A DNA stretch of 64,000 nucleotides from Cenarchaeum sp. (GTDB taxonomy: Archaea; Thermoproteota; Nitrososphaeria; Nitrososphaerales; Nitrosopumilaceae), in contig OY843584.1 of the NCBI GenBank assembly GCA_963692915.1, positions 672,001 to 736,000 of the forward strand. Reading direction: 5' to 3'. The notes below the pieces were generated by a model, which worked only from the letters and a program-made list of their open reading frames with translations, was not told the DNA's origin and ran no database searches. Shown here in pieces: positions 28,342 through 36,562 of the stretch. Made by a program: the position numbers and the translations under genes. The stretch's first letter is position 1; each line of letters opens with the position of its first letter.

Positions 28342-28437
28342 GGGAAGCCGCAGTGCGGGCGCTCGTTATAAAGTTAGACTGGTCTTGCGCACATGATCCA
28401 AATGGTTCAATTAGCGGCAGTCATTTTGGCATGCCGC

Positions 28438-28992
28438 ATGAGCGGGCACGGCAGCGTTGGGGAGATTCGCCAGAGCGTCATTGGGTGTACCAAGTGCCCC
28501 TTGTGCTCGACGCGCACAAACGCCGTGCCCGGAAAGGGGGACGAGCACGCCAGAATAATCCTTGTGGGCGAGGCGCCGGGGCGACGCGAGGACGAGCGCG
28601 GCGAGCCGTTTGTCGGAGCCGCAGGCCACATACTCGATAACGCGCTCGCCGGTGCCGGCCTCTCGCGCGAGTCAGTATACATCACAAACACGGTAAAGTG
28701 CAGGCCGCCAGACAACAGGGTTCCAACTGACGCCGAGCGTGCCGCGTGTGCAGAATACCTTGCTGCCGAGATATCGCTCATATCGCCAAAGATAGTCTGC
28801 ATAATGGGCAACACCGCGTACAAGAGCATACTTGGGGGCAGCAGCATCACGCGTGAGCGCGGCAAGACCATACACAGGGACGGCATTGACTATTTTCTCA
28901 CGGTCCATCCGGCCGCAGTCATATACAACCGCGGGCTCGAGGGTGCGCTAGGCGATGACATGAAGGCGCTAGCAAGGATTGCCGGAGGCTAG
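28438..28992 (+). CDS. udg: uracil-DNA glycosylase family 4 (Fe-S type)
   Basis: 'CTKCPL', 'VGEAPG', 'PFVG', 'VKCRPPDNR', 'HPAA'. Confidence 0.93.
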   Translation: MSGHGSVGEIRQSVIGCTKCPLCSTRTNAVPGKGDEHARIILVGEAPGRREDERGEPFVGAAGHILDNALAGAGLSRESVYITNTVKCRPPDNRVPTDAERAACAEYLAAEISLISPKIVCIMGNTAYKSILGGSSITRERGKTIHRDGIDYFLTVHPAAVIYNRGLEGALGDDMKALARIAGG

Positions 28993-28993
28993 A

Positions 28994-29557
28994 ATGAGGC
29001 CGCTGCCACGGGAGTTCTATGCCAGGGACACCGTCACTGTCGCTCGCGACCTTTTGGGCCGCACGCTAGTGCGCCGCGCTGCCGGAGGGAGGGCGACGAT
29101 GGCCGGAACAATAGTCGAGACTGAAGCGTACAGGGCGTCTGACGATCCCGCAAGCCATGCGAGACGCGGCATGACGCAGAGGAACAGGGCAATGTTCGGC
29201 GAGGTCGGGCGCGCGTACGTCTACTTTACCTATGGCATGCATTATTGCCTCAACGCCGTAGCGCGCAGCAGCAGGCATGACGCCGGCGCTGTCCTAATTC
29301 GCGCGATCAGGCCGACTATGGGAGAGTGCATCATGGAAAAAAACCGCCATGGGTGCGCCGCGCGCATAATAGCCGACGGGCCGGCAAAGCTCACGCAGGC
29401 CATGGGCATAACTACTGGCCTGTACGGGACAGACCTGACTAGGCGCGGAGACCTGTATGTTGCCGGTGACGTGGCATCTCGCAGGCGCATTGCCACAGGC
29501 GCGCGCATTGGTATACGAAATGGGCTAGACATGATGTGGAACTTTAGGCTAGCCTGA
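28994..29557 (+). CDS. mpg: DNA-3-methyladenine glycosylase (AAG/Mpg type)
   Basis: 'IVETEAY', 'DPASH', 'YVYFTYGMH', 'AVLIRA', 'GPAKL'. Confidence 0.93.
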   Translation: MRPLPREFYARDTVTVARDLLGRTLVRRAAGGRATMAGTIVETEAYRASDDPASHARRGMTQRNRAMFGEVGRAYVYFTYGMHYCLNAVARSSRHDAGAVLIRAIRPTMGECIMEKNRHGCAARIIADGPAKLTQAMGITTGLYGTDLTRRGDLYVAGDVASRRRIATGARIGIRNGLDMMWNFRLA

Positions 29558-30199
29558 GCGCGCATTGCCATTATCGTCTTCATCGAGCGTCCAGGGCGCC
29601 ACGCGTCCTAGCACACGCGACCAGTCGAGTCGCAAGAGCGCGATCACGATGACCGTAACGGCAGCCCCGAACACGATTATGCCAATCAGCGCATACAGGA
29701 CATTGCCGTCAACCTGCGACATGGCAGACTCTACTAGCGAGGCACCAAGATAGTGCGCGAGGAGAACTGTCGCATAGTTGAGGACGAGCTTGCCTGACAG
29801 CGTGTATATCAGAAAACGCACGGGGTTGTACCTTGCTATGCCAAGCGGGATGTAGACGAGGTCATCAGGTATCGGCGTGGCTGCTGCAACAAATGTCGCA
29901 ATGCCGCCGTACCGCTTTACAAGGCGCTCAAATGGCCGTATTCGCGCCCGCGTCTTTGGGGCAATCATGCGCCTCCCCCCATAGCTGACCGAGAATATTA
30001 TCTGCTTTGCCGCAGTTGCAGTCAGCGCAGATATCAGCGCCAGAGCATGCAGGTTGAACGTGTCTCCCACTGACATTGTCACAAGGAATATGAACGAGGG
30101 CACGGGCACAAACGGTATGAGTGAGCCCACAAAGCTGACCAGTCCAAGTCCAAAATAGCTCAGCTCGGAGGACAGACCGAGCAGCGTGAACAGATCCAC
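29549..30199 (-). CDS. DedA/YqaA (VTT/SNARE-associated) membrane protein
   Basis: TM helices and 'AATPIPDD...PLGIARY'; GTG 30199 chosen as start. Confidence 0.82.
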   Translation of the reverse strand: MDLFTLLGLSSELSYFGLGLVSFVGSLIPFVPVPSFIFLVTMSVGDTFNLHALALISALTATAAKQIIFSVSYGGRRMIAPKTRARIRPFERLVKRYGGIATFVAAATPIPDDLVYIPLGIARYNPVRFLIYTLSGKLVLNYATVLLAHYLGASLVESAMSQVDGNVLYALIGIIVFGAAVTVIVIALLRLDWSRVLGRVAPWTLDEDDNGNARSG

Positions 30200-30442
30200 C
30201 GGCAGGCCGCGTCGGCGGCAATTATTTAACTGTGAAGCGCCCATCAGCGGTCAAGGCGCATTCCAACGCACGTCAGGCATCGCTGTCCACATAACTGCCG
30301 GAAATGCCGCATTGCAGGGCATCACCCGGCCACCATTGAGAGGTTCCACGGACCCTGCATGATGCCGTGTCAAAGGTCAAGCGCCAGATATCGCCCATGA
30401 CACACAGCGTCAGGATCCCAGCCCATATTTCAAAAATAATTC

Positions 30443-30459
30443 TGTTTTTCTGAAAAACA
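30443..30459. promoter_or_regulatory. perfect palindrome TGTTTTTC-T-GAAAAACA, candidate operator upstream of the GHKL-AbiEii operon
   Basis: Exact 8-bp inverted repeat with a 1-nt spacer in the AT-rich leader, 100 nt before ATG 30559. Confidence 0.4.
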
Positions 30460-30558
30460 CGTAAAATAATCAATTTATCCAAAAGTCAGCCTATTTGAAA
30501 CAGATCATATATAAGGAAAATAAAATAGGTATATATATTAAATATGCAGTAGCGGGGC

Positions 30559-32412
30559 ATGGAACTCGTGAGCGTAGACGCAACGCCTGACAAGAGCCTG
30601 ATAATGAAACTCGGCCAAGTCGGCTACAAGGCAGAGCAGGCCATCGCCGAACTGGTGGACAATGCCATTGATGCCAGGATCGACGGCAAGACCGAGAGCA
30701 TTGAGATCGGACTGGACCGCTCCAGCGAGATTGCCATTCGCGACGACGGGAAAGGCATGGATCTAGAGAGGCTGAGGCGCGCATGGACCCTGGGAGGCGC
30801 ATCCAAAAAAGGCAAGATTGGGATGTTTGGCGTGGGGTTAAAGAGCGCGTCATCATCACTAGGCAGGCACATAGACATAAGCACCACAGTCGAGGGATCT
30901 GGATACGAGCTGACTCTGACATATGATGAAGAAGAGTGGTTGAAGGACAAAAATGCCAAATGGAACAATGTCAAGGTAAGGCGCCACAGGGCTGAAAAGG
31001 GCACACATGGCACAAATATACGCATATCACAGCTCCGATCGTCATCATTTCCGCAACCAGCCAAGCTGCGCGAAGAGTTTGGCATACGGTATGGGCCGTA
31101 TCTCAATGAGGGAATTAGAATATCGATAAATGGCAAACAATGCGCGGCAAAAGAACCCACTATTGCTGACGGAACAAGAAAAAAGGTCGCCATGACCACA
31201 TTAGACGGAATAAGCATAACAGGGTGGATCGCATTGCTAAAAAAACGATCCATAAAGGGCAATTATGGAATACACATATACACCAACGGGAGACTGATAA
31301 AACCATACGCAAAGTTTGGCATACCTAGGCATCCCACCGCAGCTCGCGTCATAGGAAGCGTCACACTTGATAATGTTCCAGTGAATGTGTTCAAGACGGG
31401 TTTTCTCACAGAGTCACAAGAATACAAAGCAGCAGCAAATAGATTCAAAAACGACAACAATGTAAAAGAGACGATGCGTATGGCTGCCAGGAATAATCAG
31501 AAGGATCACGATATTGCGTCTGTCCTAAACCCACAAGAAAATCAGCGCCAACCACGCCTTTTGCGGCTAGGCGAGACAAAATCAGAAAGGCTTTTGCAAA
31601 ACATGGGCACCAATCTCATAGAGTACGATTTTGGGCCTGGCCTAAGATTGGAAGACGGCGGCTCAGGCCTGTACCGCTTAGAAAAACATGGTGAACGGCT
31701 AGAAATTGTGGTGAATCGTCAAAGCAAGGTCTTTCAGGCGTTTAAAAATCCACTGCATCTGCTAGTTATGATACAGGCAGAGGTGGAGACGTTTTTTCGC
31801 GATCCAGACATGGGCGACTTTATTGAGGCTCGAAATATCAAGTGGGAAAATCGGATAGACAAGCTTGCCAACGGTGCTCCTCGAGGCAGGTTACAGAACA
31901 TAGATCTGTTGAGTGCTGAACTGAGACATGTCTGTAAATATATGTTAGAACACGGCGCACACAGATTTCAGTTTACTGCATTGTCCACATTAACCGAATT
32001 TTTGAATCAGGCATACAGAAGGCACGTATACACTGTATACACCACGAGAGGGGACAGTCAGGGATTAGAAAGCATGATATCAAAACATGGCGAGTGTTTT
32101 CCGTTGACAGAGCCAACATATCCACAATTGTCTACTGCGATGGATGCAATGGGAGATAAAAGCATCATAATAATACGCGAATATGCCAACATTCCAAATT
32201 CAATAGTTGCGTCTCTAGAAAAATCATGGGTCGATCTGTTTTTTGAGACAACAAAAAAAGGCATACAGTTCTATAAAAAAGAGCTCGAGATGGTCGAGGC
32301 GTTACTAAATTCGGAAATGGCGACCAAAGAGCGCATAATGTCGTGGGCAAAACGGCGCAAGATTGAAACTGTAATTGGCGAATACCTGGAGGTGCAGCAC
32401 TGTGAAAGTTGA
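30559..32412 (+). CDS. MORC-like GHKL ATPase with probable C-terminal AbiEi/DUF6577-like antitoxin domain
   Basis: Bergerat motifs 'AIAELVDNAIDA', 'DDGKGM', 'GMFGVGLK', 'HGT'; S5-like 'GIHIYTNGRLI' and 'VPVNVFKTGF'; C-terminal 'SLEKSWVDLF' and 'WAKRR'. Confidence 0.8.
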   Translation: MELVSVDATPDKSLIMKLGQVGYKAEQAIAELVDNAIDARIDGKTESIEIGLDRSSEIAIRDDGKGMDLERLRRAWTLGGASKKGKIGMFGVGLKSASSSLGRHIDISTTVEGSGYELTLTYDEEEWLKDKNAKWNNVKVRRHRAEKGTHGTNIRISQLRSSSFPQPAKLREEFGIRYGPYLNEGIRISINGKQCAAKEPTIADGTRKKVAMTTLDGISITGWIALLKKRSIKGNYGIHIYTNGRLIKPYAKFGIPRHPTAARVIGSVTLDNVPVNVFKTGFLTESQEYKAAANRFKNDNNVKETMRMAARNNQKDHDIASVLNPQENQRQPRLLRLGETKSERLLQNMGTNLIEYDFGPGLRLEDGGSGLYRLEKHGERLEIVVNRQSKVFQAFKNPLHLLVMIQAEVETFFRDPDMGDFIEARNIKWENRIDKLANGAPRGRLQNIDLLSAELRHVCKYMLEHGAHRFQFTALSTLTEFLNQAYRRHVYTVYTTRGDSQGLESMISKHGECFPLTEPTYPQLSTAMDAMGDKSIIIIREYANIPNSIVASLEKSWVDLFFETTKKGIQFYKKELEMVEALLNSEMATKERIMSWAKRRKIETVIGEYLEVQHCES

Positions 32413-33508
32413 CAAGTACGATGCATCAACAATCAACAACATTTCCAAGAAGTATGGATTTACGTCCAAATTCAATATTGAAAAATTCATAATGGATTTT
32501 TCTATACACAAGCTAATATCAGAAAAAATGGAATGTTGCATACGTGGAGGACTATGTAGTCCGTTTTATGTAAAGACACCCGAATCATGGAGATTAAGCG
32601 TGGATATTGACTTATTCATGAAATTATCACATGAAGAAATAACAAAAATGGTTCCTGAAATTTTAATCCAAGCAGGGTTGAGGTGCAAACTACGAAAACC
32701 CATAAGAATAAGCAATTTGGTGCAGTTTGACGTGTGGTATAAATCAGCATTACTAAAATTTGATGAAAATAGACGGGTGAAAATAGACATACAGTACAGC
32801 ACAGATGTTGATGCATTTGCCCAAATGCTAGATAAAGGACAAAAACCATTCATTGTGGGCATTGATTACGCCATAAAGGCACTCAGACCAGGTTGCTTAA
32901 TTGGAGACAAAATACCAGCATTGGCAATAGGCAATATGGGATATACAGACATATCAAAAGCTCCAAAGCAGATACATGACATTGGTTATTTGCTAGACAG
33001 TGTCGGAATAGATGATATTCATGACATATTGTCATCATTTCCAACAATTACACAAGAGAAAATAACACATGATAAATCAGGAACCACGGTCAATGATGCG
33101 ATCAACGCAATTATCGAGTTTTTGCAGAATTTGCTAATGCCGAATGATGAATTATTAGTGAGTAAATCATATTTAAATGATTTTGAAAGATTTAAGGGCG
33201 AATACCTATCAGAAAACCAGACATATGATATAAATGTCATCAAATCAAATATTCTAAAGACGCTTCTGTGTGCGCTATACATCAAAGCAGCAACAGAGTC
33301 GCGCATGAGCAAACAACAAGCATCCACACTGATGAGTGAATCACTAGTCGAATACAACAGGCTATCCGATAGCAAATATTCGACAGATGTGGAAATTATA
33401 CAAGAAACACACAGTAAAAATTTATACAACGTTAAAAAAGAGACTCTTCAAAATTTGCATCTTGTAAAAAGTGTAAACACAGTATGGAATGTAATAAACC
33501 AAGACTAA
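32402..33508 (+). CDS. AbiEii/AbiGii-family nucleotidyltransferase (type IV TA toxin-like)
   Basis: 'IEK', 'IRGG', 'RLSVDIDL', 'VKIDI', 'IGDKIPAL', 'KQIHDIGYL'; GTG 32402 overlaps the upstream stop; AT-rich. Confidence 0.82.
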   Translation: MKVDKYDASTINNISKKYGFTSKFNIEKFIMDFSIHKLISEKMECCIRGGLCSPFYVKTPESWRLSVDIDLFMKLSHEEITKMVPEILIQAGLRCKLRKPIRISNLVQFDVWYKSALLKFDENRRVKIDIQYSTDVDAFAQMLDKGQKPFIVGIDYAIKALRPGCLIGDKIPALAIGNMGYTDISKAPKQIHDIGYLLDSVGIDDIHDILSSFPTITQEKITHDKSGTTVNDAINAIIEFLQNLLMPNDELLVSKSYLNDFERFKGEYLSENQTYDINVIKSNILKTLLCALYIKAATESRMSKQQASTLMSESLVEYNRLSDSKYSTDVEIIQETHSKNLYNVKKETLQNLHLVKSVNTVWNVINQD

Positions 33509-33790
33509 TGAAATAGTCTATTTAGGAATAACCTGTAAGAGAGTAGACAACATGCCCATGACTTAGATCACGTGCACATGTGCAACACGAACAAGCATTG
33601 GCAATATCGCGCCATGAATCATCCTGCAGAATGTCGCAGGTCGATCCTGTGTGTCACATGCGGCTCATATTCTTGACCTCGCGCCAACAAACGGTGTGTC
33701 GTCCGGCCATATGCCCCTGACGACATCGCGATGCGCGTGCGTGGTATCCACCGCAAAGGCTAAATCTGCACGACGGCGACGCGCAGCACG

Positions 33791-35053
33791 ATGGGCCTGC
33801 CACGGGGAATGAAGGACATAGAGGCCGGCGAGGTGACCGGGATCGAGTCAGTTCGCGCAGCCTTTGCCAGGACGTGCGACCTCTTTGGGTACACGCTAGT
33901 CGAGCCCTCCACGATAGAGTCACTAGAGACGCTAGAGGCAAAGAGCGGGCCGGCAATACGCGACGAGGTCTACCACTTTGAGGACAAGGGCGAGCGCGCC
34001 GTTGCGCTCCGATTCGACATGACAGTCGGCATGACGCGCAACGTGGCAGCACAGAGATCCATGCGCCTGCCTGCGCGAAGAGCCGCCTTTGGAGGCGTGT
34101 GGAGGTATGATGAGCCACAGCGCGGCCGCTATCGCTACTTTCACCAGTGGGACATCGAGGTCTATGGCGCACATGGCGCAGAGGCCGACGCCGAGGTTGC
34201 CGAGTTTACGGTTCGCATGCTAGAGGCGCTAGGCATCCAGGGCGCAACGGTGCAGGTGAGCCACCGCAAGATAGCCGAGTCTCACATACGGCACGTCACA
34301 GGCGGCGCAGGATCCCTCGCGGACATGCTTCGAGCCGTGGACAAGACGCAAAAGAGGCCAGAGGCCGACATCATATCCGAGTACGAGGCCCGCGGCCACA
34401 CGCGCGCGGCCCTAGAGGGCGTCATGCGCCTGGCCCACGCGCGAGGCAGCATCGAGGAGGCCAAAGAGTCCCTCGGCGCCGGCGAGACCGAGGGCTGGGA
34501 CGAGCTGCGCGCCGTCATGGACTCGCTTGCGCGCCGCGGCGTGGAGAACGCTACTGTCAACCTTGGCATCGTGCGTGGGCTTGACTATTACTCGGGAACC
34601 GTCTTTGAGGCATTCGGGCCAGACGGGGGCATTGGCGCGCTCGCCGGCGGCGGGCGCTATGACTCGCTCTCCGAGGCGCTCGGCGGCCCGCCGATGGCAG
34701 CAGCGGGGGCTGCCGGCGGGGTTGAGAGAACCATTCTCGCAATGAGCCCGCAGGACTCTGCGCCAAGGCCGCATGTTGCAGTAGTTCATGTAGGTGACGG
34801 CATGGACGCCGAGGCCGCAGCACTCGCCGCGCGCATTAGGCAACGCGGCATCCCCGCATCGGCGAACCCCGATCCCCGCGCGCTAAAGAGGCAGATTGCC
34901 GCTGCCGAACAGGATGGCGCGCGCGCAGTAGTCATTGTCGCGCCGCGCGAGTGGACAGCCGGAAATGTCGTCGTGCGCGACATGCGCGCGCGTACCGAGT
35001 CGACAGTTCGTGCAGATGATGTTCACGGTGCGCTAAGTGCGGCGCTCAGTTGA
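33791..35053 (+). CDS. hisS: histidine--tRNA ligase
   Basis: 'PRGMKD', 'LRFDMT', 'RYDEPQRGRYRYFHQ', 'RGLDYY', 'GGGRYD'. Confidence 0.97.
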   Translation: MGLPRGMKDIEAGEVTGIESVRAAFARTCDLFGYTLVEPSTIESLETLEAKSGPAIRDEVYHFEDKGERAVALRFDMTVGMTRNVAAQRSMRLPARRAAFGGVWRYDEPQRGRYRYFHQWDIEVYGAHGAEADAEVAEFTVRMLEALGIQGATVQVSHRKIAESHIRHVTGGAGSLADMLRAVDKTQKRPEADIISEYEARGHTRAALEGVMRLAHARGSIEEAKESLGAGETEGWDELRAVMDSLARRGVENATVNLGIVRGLDYYSGTVFEAFGPDGGIGALAGGGRYDSLSEALGGPPMAAAGAAGGVERTILAMSPQDSAPRPHVAVVHVGDGMDAEAAALAARIRQRGIPASANPDPRALKRQIAAAEQDGARAVVIVAPREWTAGNVVVRDMRARTESTVRADDVHGALSAALS

Positions 35054-36477: not shown

Positions 36478-36561
36478 GCAGAGGTCGCCTAGCCCGGTAG
36501 GGCGCGGGCCTTGAGAGCCTGTGTGCTTTGGCATGCGGGGGTTCAAATCCCCCTCTCTGCG
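36478..36561 (+). tRNA. tRNA-Ser(UGA), intronless, CCA not encoded
   Basis: Acceptor GCAGAGG/TCTCTGC; anticodon stem CGGGC/GCCTG with loop CT-TGA-GA; long variable arm; T-arm GGGGG-TTCAAAT-CCCCC; discriminator G. Confidence 0.93.
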
Positions 36562-36562
36562 C

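Follow-up and report, generated by a model that had tools for sequence, protein, structure and literature searches.

A probable two-gene AbiE-family module in Cenarchaeum sp. whose putative antitoxin carries a MORC-type ATPase in the usual place of the winged helix

How would an antitoxin control its toxin if its DNA-binding head had been exchanged for an ATPase? This question is raised by two overlapping genes, here called gene 1 and gene 2, that lie between a DedA-type gene and hisS in a stretch of 64,000 nucleotides (hereafter the window; assembly GCA_963692915.1, contig OY843584.1, positions 672,001–736,000) of Cenarchaeum sp., a member of the Nitrosopumilaceae whose genome is a single contig of 1.64 Mb. 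We consider it probable that the pair is an AbiE-family module in which a MORC-fused antitoxin, encoded by gene 1, controls a nucleotidyltransferase toxin encoded by gene 2. In this reading, the pair would be a horizontally acquired toxin–antitoxin (TA) or abortive-infection module with an unusual antitoxin.

AbiE, composed of AbiEi and AbiEii, is a TA/abortive-infection system of Lactococcus lactis and Streptococcus agalactiae that is classed as type IV, and the N-terminal winged helix of AbiEi (AbiEi_1, AbiEi_3 or AbiEi_4; COG5340) serves DNA binding and autoregulation. MORC ATPases are known from eukaryotic silencing and from plant antiviral immunity. What frees AbiE and MenAT toxins from control is, to our knowledge, not yet settled. 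A recent preprint proposes to class AbiE as type VII (bioRxiv 10.64898/2026.01.19.700257).

Domain architecture of the gene 1 protein

By its sequence, the N-terminal half of gene 1 is a MORC-type GHKL plus S5 ATPase. All four GHKL motifs were found (I, E31 and N35; II, D62, G64 and G66; III, G88, G91 and G93; IV, T152), with ELVDNAIDA starting at amino acid (aa) 31, DDGKGM at aa 62, GMFGVGLK at aa 88, HGT at aa 150 and the S5-type string GIHIYTNGRLI at aa 237. Among 40 relatives, E31, D34, D62, G66, G88, G91, G93 and G151 were invariant, and N35, G64, K95 and T152 were conserved in at least 90%. The Pfam family HATPase_c_3 matched all 40 relatives and Morc6_S5 matched 21 of them (E ≤ 1e-3); on the window protein, Morc6_S5 reached E 9.5e-4, below its cut-off. 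When a profile of the 40 relatives was compared with solved structures, MORC4 came first (4.8e-19), followed by MORC3 and MORC2 (to 4e-10), all ahead of any Hsp90, GyrB or MutL, and a second MORC-aligned stretch covered the S5 region, where YGIHxYxNGRLIK of gene 1 is matched with FGIMMYHNNRLIK. Given the Pfam matches, the MORC-first profile matches and the conserved ATP-binding residues, we regard the protein as MORC-type and the ATPase as very probably active. The GHKL and MORC-type S5 assignment of the original prediction, which had been made from the sequence without database searches, was thus borne out. Relatives of gene 1 numbered 180 at E ≤ 1e-3, and the best 120 of these 180 were 520–672 aa long with 80–100% query coverage. 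Gene 2, too, has many full-length relatives.

Other GHKL-type defence proteins resembled gene 1 in the ATPase head. NCBIfam MzaB matched aa 16–125 only, with 39.3 bits against a cut-off of 850, and PADLOC TmtA gave E 9.6e-4 over ~80 aa; among the 40 relatives, PADLOC MzaB matched 38 weakly and TmtA matched 7, in each case within a head of ~100 aa. Gene 1 therefore shares with Tiamat (TmtA) and MZA (MzaB) a weakly similar GHKL N-terminus and the plan of an ATPase head joined to a swappable C-terminal module, but it has no nuclease domain and no MZA partner genes. Similarly, the prokaryotic MORC and paraMORC proteins of Iyer, Abhiman and Aravind (2008, PMC2292703) have an N-terminal GHKL plus S5 module; unlike gene 1, which is accompanied only by AbiEii and its own antitoxin-like C-terminus, they are tied to helicases, nucleases and methylases. 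Neither a nucleotidyltransferase nor an Abi system or toxin is named in the main text of the 2008 paper.

Behind the ATPase half, an AlphaFold model of aa 300–617 (48 sequences; mean predicted local distance difference test score, pLDDT, 88) showed two domains with a linker of low confidence between them (aa 439–445). The first, a middle domain, is a unit of a helix, three strands and a helix in which F392, N397 and P398 are invariant, and it had no Pfam or Foldseek match. The second, the C-terminal domain, is firmly homologous in its sequence profile to the C-terminal domain of DUF6577 proteins, a branch that PADLOC calls AbiEi. It contains LSAELRH (aa 451), LTEFLNQ (aa 478), SLEKSWVDLF (aa 552) and WAKRR (aa 596), strings in which an AbiEi/DUF6577-like domain had been suspected. 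Pfam DUF6577 (PF20217) matched gene 1 at 8.6e-4, aligning aa 475–612 with model positions 60–200 of 204; a full-length match above the cut-off was not obtained for the window protein. The same family was matched (E ≤ 1e-3) by 18 of the 40 relatives, one fused relative exceeded the cut-off with 38.3 bits, and five PADLOC AbiEi models matched gene 1 at 4.8e-4 to 0.027.

Comparison of whole families gave a clear result. A profile of the last ~172 aa, built from 48 relatives, matched 218 proteins at E ≤ 1e-3 among 1.84 billion representatives (99 at ≤ 1e-10 and 38 at ≤ 1e-30). Among 150 listed matches of these 218, 26 were of the fused form with 600–680 aa, and most of the non-fused proteins were 200–310 aa long and carried the domain at the C-terminus. 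From the 150 we drew 86 short relatives (203–311 aa), excluding pieces shorter than 200 aa, anything above 311 aa, and seven short proteins with high scores that could be fragments of fused genes. Pfam DUF6577 matched 73 of the 86 (best 3.9e-48) and the AbiEi_4 winged helix matched 25, while AbiEi models of PADLOC matched 73 and 69. Alignment of the fused C-terminal domain with these short relatives by hhalign gave 99.94% and E 1.7e-36 over 168 columns, covering template positions 70–239 of the standalone DUF6577 family and starting right behind its winged helix-turn-helix (wHTH). Given this homology and an alignment that begins directly after the wHTH, the comparison supports the view that the MORC ATPase stands where the winged helix of DUF6577/AbiEi proteins normally is, as had been proposed. 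No helix-turn-helix family matched gene 1 at E ≤ 1, and aa 1–300 are occupied by the MORC GHKL plus S5 module. Among Protein Data Bank (PDB) chains, the DUF6577 family profile matched only winged-helix proteins, via its N-terminus, and the ESM Atlas returned only unnamed clusters for aa 300–617 of gene 1, at 0.90–0.91 and within the range of shuffled sequences.

The standalone DUF6577 proteins consist of a winged helix and the C-terminal domain, usually with an AbiEii gene following them. In 301 Thermoproteota genomes we found eight DUF6577 places in six genomes, one of which was the C-terminus of a fused protein; five of the seven standalone places had a gene matching Pfam AbiEii above cut-off directly downstream on the same strand, with AbiEii open frames mostly of 390–420 aa and of 266 aa in one case. 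At four loci of Solirubrobacterales (mostly Solirubrobacteraceae), a protein of ~257–293 aa combined AbiEi_4 with a DUF6577-type domain, and the next open reading frame (ORF) matched the gene 2 profile at three of the four. The fused and standalone proteins thus share a homologous C-terminal domain and are followed by the same long AbiEii subfamily; they differ in that the standalone form has only 200–310 aa and begins with an AbiEi_4-type winged helix (25 of 86), whereas the window protein has the MORC module in that position.

The nucleotidyltransferase and its possible control

Gene 2 is, judged by its predicted structure, an AbiEii/DUF1814 nucleotidyltransferase of the MenT3/TglT type. Its model was confident (mean pLDDT 89.9; predicted template modelling score 0.91), and Foldseek matched it first to nine chains of TglT/MenT3 (Rv1045) with E 5e-6 to 2e-5 and probability 1.0, at template modelling scores of 0.55–0.65 normalised to the target; the DUF1814 protein JHP933 and terminal uridylyl transferases ranked next. 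A sequence profile of gene 2, by contrast to the structural model, gave only chance matches to designed helical proteins among PDB chains. The motifs RGG (aa 48), RLSVDID (aa 64), GDK (aa 168) and KQIHD (aa 189) were in place, so that all thirteen motifs quoted for the two genes in the original prediction were recovered, and E27, G49, G50, R64, S66, D68, D70, D169, K170, K189, D193 and F264 were invariant in 39 sequences. Relatives of gene 2 matched Pfam AbiEii with 34.6–53.5 bits. Together with the Foldseek result and the PADLOC AbiEii matches of the family given below, these findings bear out the assignment of gene 2 to AbiEii.

In TglT, a cavity is lined by G62, R76, S78, D80, D82, K189 and D208; R76 is the invariant arginine of DUF1814, and S78 becomes phosphorylated in the presence of the antitoxin (PMC7205606). 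The spacing of R64-L-S66-V-D68-I-D70 in gene 2 equals that of R76-S78-D80-D82 in TglT, and G50 and R64 lie 14 residues apart, like G62 and R76. By motif and spacing, rather than by residue-level structural alignment, S66 of gene 2 would be the counterpart of the phospho-acceptor serine S78 of TglT/MenT3. AbiEi of S. agalactiae is reported to bind AbiEii and to induce auto-phosphorylation at T65, a mechanism also proposed for S78 of MenT3 (bioRxiv 10.64898/2026.01.19.700257); the same antitoxin-induced phosphorylation is described for MenT1 and MenT3 (PMC11375011). The MenAT3/TglT-TakA pair (Rv1045-Rv1044) of Mycobacterium tuberculosis, the best structural match of gene 2 with an identical G-G ... 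R-x-S-x-D-x-D spacing that includes the phosphorylated serine, therefore offers a likely mechanism of neutralisation. It differs from the window pair in two respects, as gene 2 has no sequence-level match to PDB chains and the M. tuberculosis antitoxin, a small protein of COG5340, has a wHTH but lacks an ATPase.

Like AbiE, the pair is bicistronic with the antitoxin gene first and an overlapping toxin gene, its toxin is a predicted DUF1814/AbiEii nucleotidyltransferase with the same motifs (hG[GS] and [DE]h[DE]h), and the C-terminal part of gene 1 falls into a family covered by PADLOC's AbiEi models. Unlike AbiE, gene 1 has no N-terminal winged helix and carries instead ~445 aa of MORC ATPase, S5 and middle domain, the window toxin has ~370 aa compared with the 287–290 residues of TglT/MenT3 chains, no fold match to a solved AbiEi was obtained, and the host is an archaeon.

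Within the AbiE reading, by analogy with these systems, the gene 2 toxin would add nucleotides to tRNA 3' ends and thereby block translation, and gene 1 would be its cognate regulator, with the C-terminal domain acting as the toxin-handling domain of a DUF6577-type AbiEi. Most likely, this domain would dock on the toxin and provoke phosphorylation of S66, as AbiEi, MenA3 and TakA do. The winged helix would have been swapped for a complete MORC module (GHKL plus S5) and the middle domain, and the MORC heads may dimerise or clamp with ATP, probably on DNA, in line with GHL ATPases being dimeric clamps able to hold DNA (bioRxiv 10.64898/2026.09.30.754977). Such clamping could set the expression of the module itself, or it could couple antitoxin activity to a DNA or nucleotide cue, for example invading DNA. 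What the sequences show is the identity of the domains, the conservation of catalytic and ATP-binding residues, the recurrence of the gene pair and the insertion; that gene 2 is toxic, that phosphorylation neutralises it and what cue the ATPase responds to, we infer. A predicted complex of gene 1 aa 300–617 with gene 2 scored 0.01 against a mark of 0.32, a value that counts neither way on binding.

To a true infection-sensor role we would assign perhaps one third of the weight of the AbiE reading. In its boldest form, a rather unlikely idea that we put forward tentatively, the MORC head would be the sensor: ATP-dependent clamping on viral or plasmid DNA would turn off the AbiEi domain, newly made and unphosphorylated AbiEii would stop translation, and gene 1 copies without a toxin would be guards in trans or toxin-independent silencers of foreign DNA. 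If true, this would be a prokaryotic MORC ATPase that directly gates an immune effector. Alternatively, the pair might be a selfish addiction module with no role in defence, in which the MORC part merely replaces the winged helix as a DNA-binding, dimerising autoregulator. We judge this unlikely, although it would fit the observations that the autoregulatory wHTH is exactly the part replaced, that GHL ATPases can hold DNA as dimers, and that S. agalactiae AbiE gave Escherichia coli no protection against 32 coliphages (bioRxiv 10.64898/2026.01.19.700257); an ATPase of ~300 aa with conserved catalytic motifs, however, would be a costly stand-in for a helix-turn-helix of 60 aa.

Linkage, solo copies and distribution

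A scan of genome contigs for gene 1 found 60 loci, of which 54 were in Nitrosopumilaceae or other Thaumarchaeota (one a Nitrososphaera) and 1 in a Dehalococcoidia bacterium; partial matches were limited to the ATPase head in 2 Blautia loci and to the C-terminal domain in 4 Solirubrobacterales loci. Linkage was counted on 49 full-length gene 1 relatives, 48 of which had at least 1300 nt of downstream sequence. Directly downstream of these 48, an intact-looking AbiEii gene was present in 31, fragments in 9 and none in 8, and AbiEii sequence thus adjoined gene 1 in 40 of the 48 loci; the 49th relative (L013), with 1293 nt downstream, also had AbiEii. The search for the same fusion and AbiEii neighbourhood in other genomes, which had been suggested with the original prediction, was therefore successful. 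One locus counted among the fragments (L038) may be intact with a divergent tail, given its 53.5 bits to Pfam AbiEii. The loci are not independent, since L007, L009 and L010 are counterparts of the three gene 1 copies of the window genome.

A second count, in 151 Nitrosopumilaceae genomes, found gene 1 in 21 genomes, which belong to 8 of 27 genera and hold up to 5 copies each, and gene 2 in 17 genomes. Gene 1 occupied 40 places: gene 2 sequence lay directly downstream at 23, with the toxin broken or partial at 6 of these, 11 were near-full-length solo copies, and 6 were partial or at contig ends. Conversely, 27 gene 2 places represented 26 genes, 23 of which lay directly downstream of a gene 1 homologue; the other three were at a contig edge, 1.7 kb from a truncated gene 1, and a broken fragment without gene 1. 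The only intact gene 2 without an upstream gene 1 started 124 nt from a contig end. The toxin gene was not found alone and the regulator gene was often alone, an asymmetry that points to TA logic, given that gene 2 nearly always stands behind gene 1 while gene 1 often stands solo.

Gene 1 copies with no toxin or a toxin fragment kept 35 checked ATPase and C-terminal sites as well as paired copies did. Given that toxin-less copies survive with their motif residues intact, the gene 1 protein may do something beyond guarding its cis toxin; solo proteins may act in trans, neutralising the toxins of paralogous pairs, or may serve a separate MORC function. Taken further, the MORC fusion protein could be the main actor, a DNA-directed ATPase whose target is foreign or chromosomal DNA; the nucleotidyltransferase would then be an effector or accessory that it can do without, and no toxin held in check. 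The loci without an intact gene 2 and the 11 solo copies with conserved motifs are what this explanation would lead one to expect, the first descriptions of prokaryotic MORCs placed them in restriction-type contexts (PMC2292703), and the GHL ATPases Tiamat and MzaB, whose models match the gene 1 N-terminus weakly, act in defence. We nevertheless hold it to be highly improbable, given that a toxin-partner domain of the AbiEi/DUF6577 type persists in every copy, as would hardly be expected if there were no toxin for it to handle in cis or, from paralogues, in trans, and that an intact gene 2 without gene 1 occurred only once, at a contig edge. Nor did a helicase, nuclease or methylase appear as a conserved neighbour of gene 1 in 53 loci (L007–L059); across these loci, no other ORF family recurred as a third component, and the largest non-shadow neighbour cluster comprised 4 loci.

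The same data bear on the selfish addiction module. Toxin decay in 17 of the 48 loci would fit a selfish element on its way to domestication or loss, and the insertion lies between housekeeping genes with no evident defence island. On the other hand, solo copies retain their ATPase motifs though they have no operon toxin to regulate, and copies cluster, as defence genes often do.

In large Nitrosopumilaceae genomes, several copies of gene 1 were observed within tens of kb of each other, on G071 contig 2 (804661–882762; four in ~80 kb), on G089 contig 2 (347264–424439) and at L022/L030, and at L047 a second copy begins 4.6 kb past the first pair. These clusters may be hot spots or defence islands. 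At L018 (7766–8287 and 9705–10532), and also at G080:C2:506425–508928, an AbiEii gene downstream of a gene 1 relative was split in two by ~1.4 kb of inserted DNA, possibly a mobile element whose arrival inactivated the toxin. An ORF of 375 aa in the AbiEii position of L019 (7855–8979), similar in size to a divergent AbiEii, turned out to be a methyltransferase dependent on S-adenosylmethionine (Methyltransf_31, 7e-10).

The window genome itself has three gene 1 copies, at 100%, 52% and 41% identity. The 41% copy is followed by AbiEii (557162–558139; Pfam, 35.2 bits), while at the 52% copy (G000:C1:435704–437539) the toxin is reduced to a remnant of 45 codons next to an intact gene 1 paralogue, the rest having been lost by a 945-bp deletion relative to a Cenarchaeum record. 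At this locus (L002; G000:C1:434204–439039), gene 1 and its upstream sequence are 82% identical to L009 and the downstream flank is 98% identical, in genomes that are otherwise near-identical. The contrast between 82% and 98%, together with a toxin deletion in one genome, suggests recombination or replacement at the locus. Outside the window, a fourth GHKL protein (L004; G000:C1:845813–847606; a 598-aa frame with HATPase_c_3 at 1e-19) shares only the ATPase head with gene 1.

Several findings weigh against the AbiE reading. A Foldseek search of gene 1 aa 300–617 against the PDB gave a best E of 0.2, none of the 428 matches reached E ≤ 1e-3, and no solved AbiEi resembled the model. The AbiEi/DUF6577-like domain that had been proposed thus stood at the level of sequence profiles, and its expected similarity to solved structures did not appear; because of this, canonical COG5340 AbiEi (PDB 6Y8Q, named in bioRxiv 10.64898/2026.01.19.700257) is linked to gene 1 solely by gene context and by the sequence models of DUF6577 and PADLOC. 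The window proteins fall just under curated cut-offs (AbiEii 21.7 of 22.5 bits, DUF6577 19.5 of 27.8, Morc6_S5 19.7 of 26.2), and gene 2 of the window had no PADLOC or NCBIfam match. Moreover, the 17 of 48 gene 1 loci without an intact toxin have kept all ATPase and C-terminal motif residues, and the two linkage counts, from the contig scan and the 151 genomes, draw on overlapping and related genomes.

Regarding novelty, the pair had been put forward as a candidate new defence/TA system, which overstates the case; we regard it as a variant of AbiE with one part exchanged, apparently undescribed so far. PADLOC AbiEi models match 13 of the 40 gene 1 relatives and AbiEii models match 36 of the 39 gene 2 family members; some fused pairs may therefore already be labelled automatically as AbiE, while the pair of the window would not be. 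In sponge-associated Thaumarchaeota, an 'AbiE family' system was noted from Pfam tables, only in sponge-associated genomes, and the passages that report it do not mention an ATPase (PMC7848895). A 2026 survey of archaeal immunity discusses AbiE and does not discuss MORC or GHKL. As had been anticipated, the pair has no catalogue entry as a separate system, PADLOC-DB 2.0.0 lacking a model for a MORC-AbiEi fusion, and we found no description of a MORC/GHKL-AbiEi fusion in the literature covered, which left aside supplements, including those of PMC2292703 and PMC7848895, that may list the architecture.

An ATP-driven MORC clamp in place of a DNA-binding head would be a natural and testable route to couple an antitoxin to a signal, and the module ties MORC ATPases to a prokaryotic TA effector. 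Most members, frequently several per genome, occur in Nitrosopumilaceae, a group with a poorly known defence repertoire, and a few are bacterial. Given that present tools would miss the pair of the window, in which PADLOC gives no match to gene 2 and reaches gene 1 as AbiEi only at E 4.8e-4, surveys will under-count the module. That the ATPase-antitoxin gene so often outlives its toxin also raises the question of an orphan function, that is, antitoxin domestication.

The insertion between DedA and HisS

The segment between DedA and HisS (Table 1) is a real insertion, probably acquired horizontally, as indicated by an empty site in a congener, low G+C content and patchy distribution. In a genome of the same genus (G059), the order IleRS-UDG-MPG-DedA-HisS-eIF6 is retained and the gap between DedA and HisS is 64 bp, compared with ~3.5 kb in the window; the flank sequence shared with this genome stops near 30248 and starts again near 33752. 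Composition falls to 0.34–0.48 within the insert, compared with at least 0.6 in the flanks, with a G+C content of 46.7% in gene 1, 34.8% in gene 2, 61–62% in the flanks and 59.9% in the whole window. The AT-rich insert had been recognised from spot counts of 21 G+C in 60 nt at 32401–32460 and 47 in 60 at 34381–34440 in hisS, which were exact. A third congener (G078) has an unrelated, G+C-rich gap of 1.4 kb at the same position. No flanking pair of direct or inverted repeats, target duplication, terminal repeats or integrase was found at the insert, and the sole tRNA gene of the window, tRNA-Ser (anticodon TGA; 36478–36562), lies 2.7 kb away. None of 27 matching PLSDB plasmid records covered at least 80% of gene 1, the matches being MORC heads only, and a scan of viral contigs gave 26 pattern matches, none of which was a relative.

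The two genes are translationally coupled, and the coordinates given for them earlier, including a GTG at 32402 inside gene 1 and an overlap of 11 nt, were exact. The frame of gene 2 is open from a TTG at 32375 to 33508 with GTG 32402 in frame; the latter is the likely start, given the Shine-Dalgarno-like motif 7 nt before it and the alignments of relatives, which begin there.

Table 1. Features of the gene 1–gene 2 locus, in window coordinates
Feature	Coordinates	Strand	Description and basis
Gene 1	30559..32412	+	617-aa ORF, ATG start, TGA 32410–32412; MORC-type ATPase, middle domain and AbiEi-like C-terminal domain
GHKL (Bergerat) ATP-binding domain, aa 23–152	30625..31014	+	Pfam HATPase_c_3, 2e-17
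MORC-type S5-fold (transducer) domain, aa 222–297	31222..31449	+	Morc6_S5 match and second stretch aligned with MORC4/MORC3
Middle domain, fold unassigned, aa 300–445	31456..31893	+	AlphaFold model, mostly pLDDT 77–93
C-terminal domain, DUF6577/AbiEi homologue, aa 446–617	31894..32409	+	Profile comparison
Gene 2	32402..33508	+	368 aa, GTG start; AbiEii/MenT3-like nucleotidyltransferase, putative toxin
Low-G+C insert of ~3.5 kb separating DedA from HisS	30250..33750	.	Approximate boundaries; composition and empty site in G059
AT-rich region with TATA-like runs, presumed operon promoter	30420..30558	+	From sequence
GGAGGTG, Shine-Dalgarno-like motif, 7 nt 5' of gene 2 GTG	32388..32394	+	From sequence
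Left flank, DedA-type (VTT domain) membrane protein	29549..30244	-	Host gene outside the module; Pfam VTT_dom 2.4e-16; syntenic in relatives
Right flank, HisS (histidyl-tRNA synthetase)	33791..35053	+	Host gene outside the module; Pfam tRNA-synt_His 4.4e-48; syntenic in relatives

Low G+C and recent insertion could also mark horizontally acquired DNA that is decaying or no longer functional, a remnant now inactive, and the window's gene 2 indeed diverges more than any other member of its family (36% identity at best) and misses the PADLOC models that match most of its relatives. This explanation is hardly credible to us, given that both ORFs are uninterrupted and keep every family-invariant residue, and that their predicted folds are confident (mean pLDDT 88 and 90). 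Furthermore, a second genome (G012) carries the same insert, with gene 1 and gene 2 99.5% identical to those of the window (tblastn), compared with 96.7% for the adjoining HisS.

The G+C content of gene 2 is 12 points lower than that of gene 1, and identity to the nearest relative is 36% for gene 2 and 57% for gene 1; either gene 2 evolves much faster than gene 1, or it has a different history. To the left of DedA, at 28393–29557 of the window, two DNA glycosylase genes, one of the UDG superfamily and one for a methylpurine-DNA glycosylase, overlap by 14 nt, an arrangement kept in three congeners.

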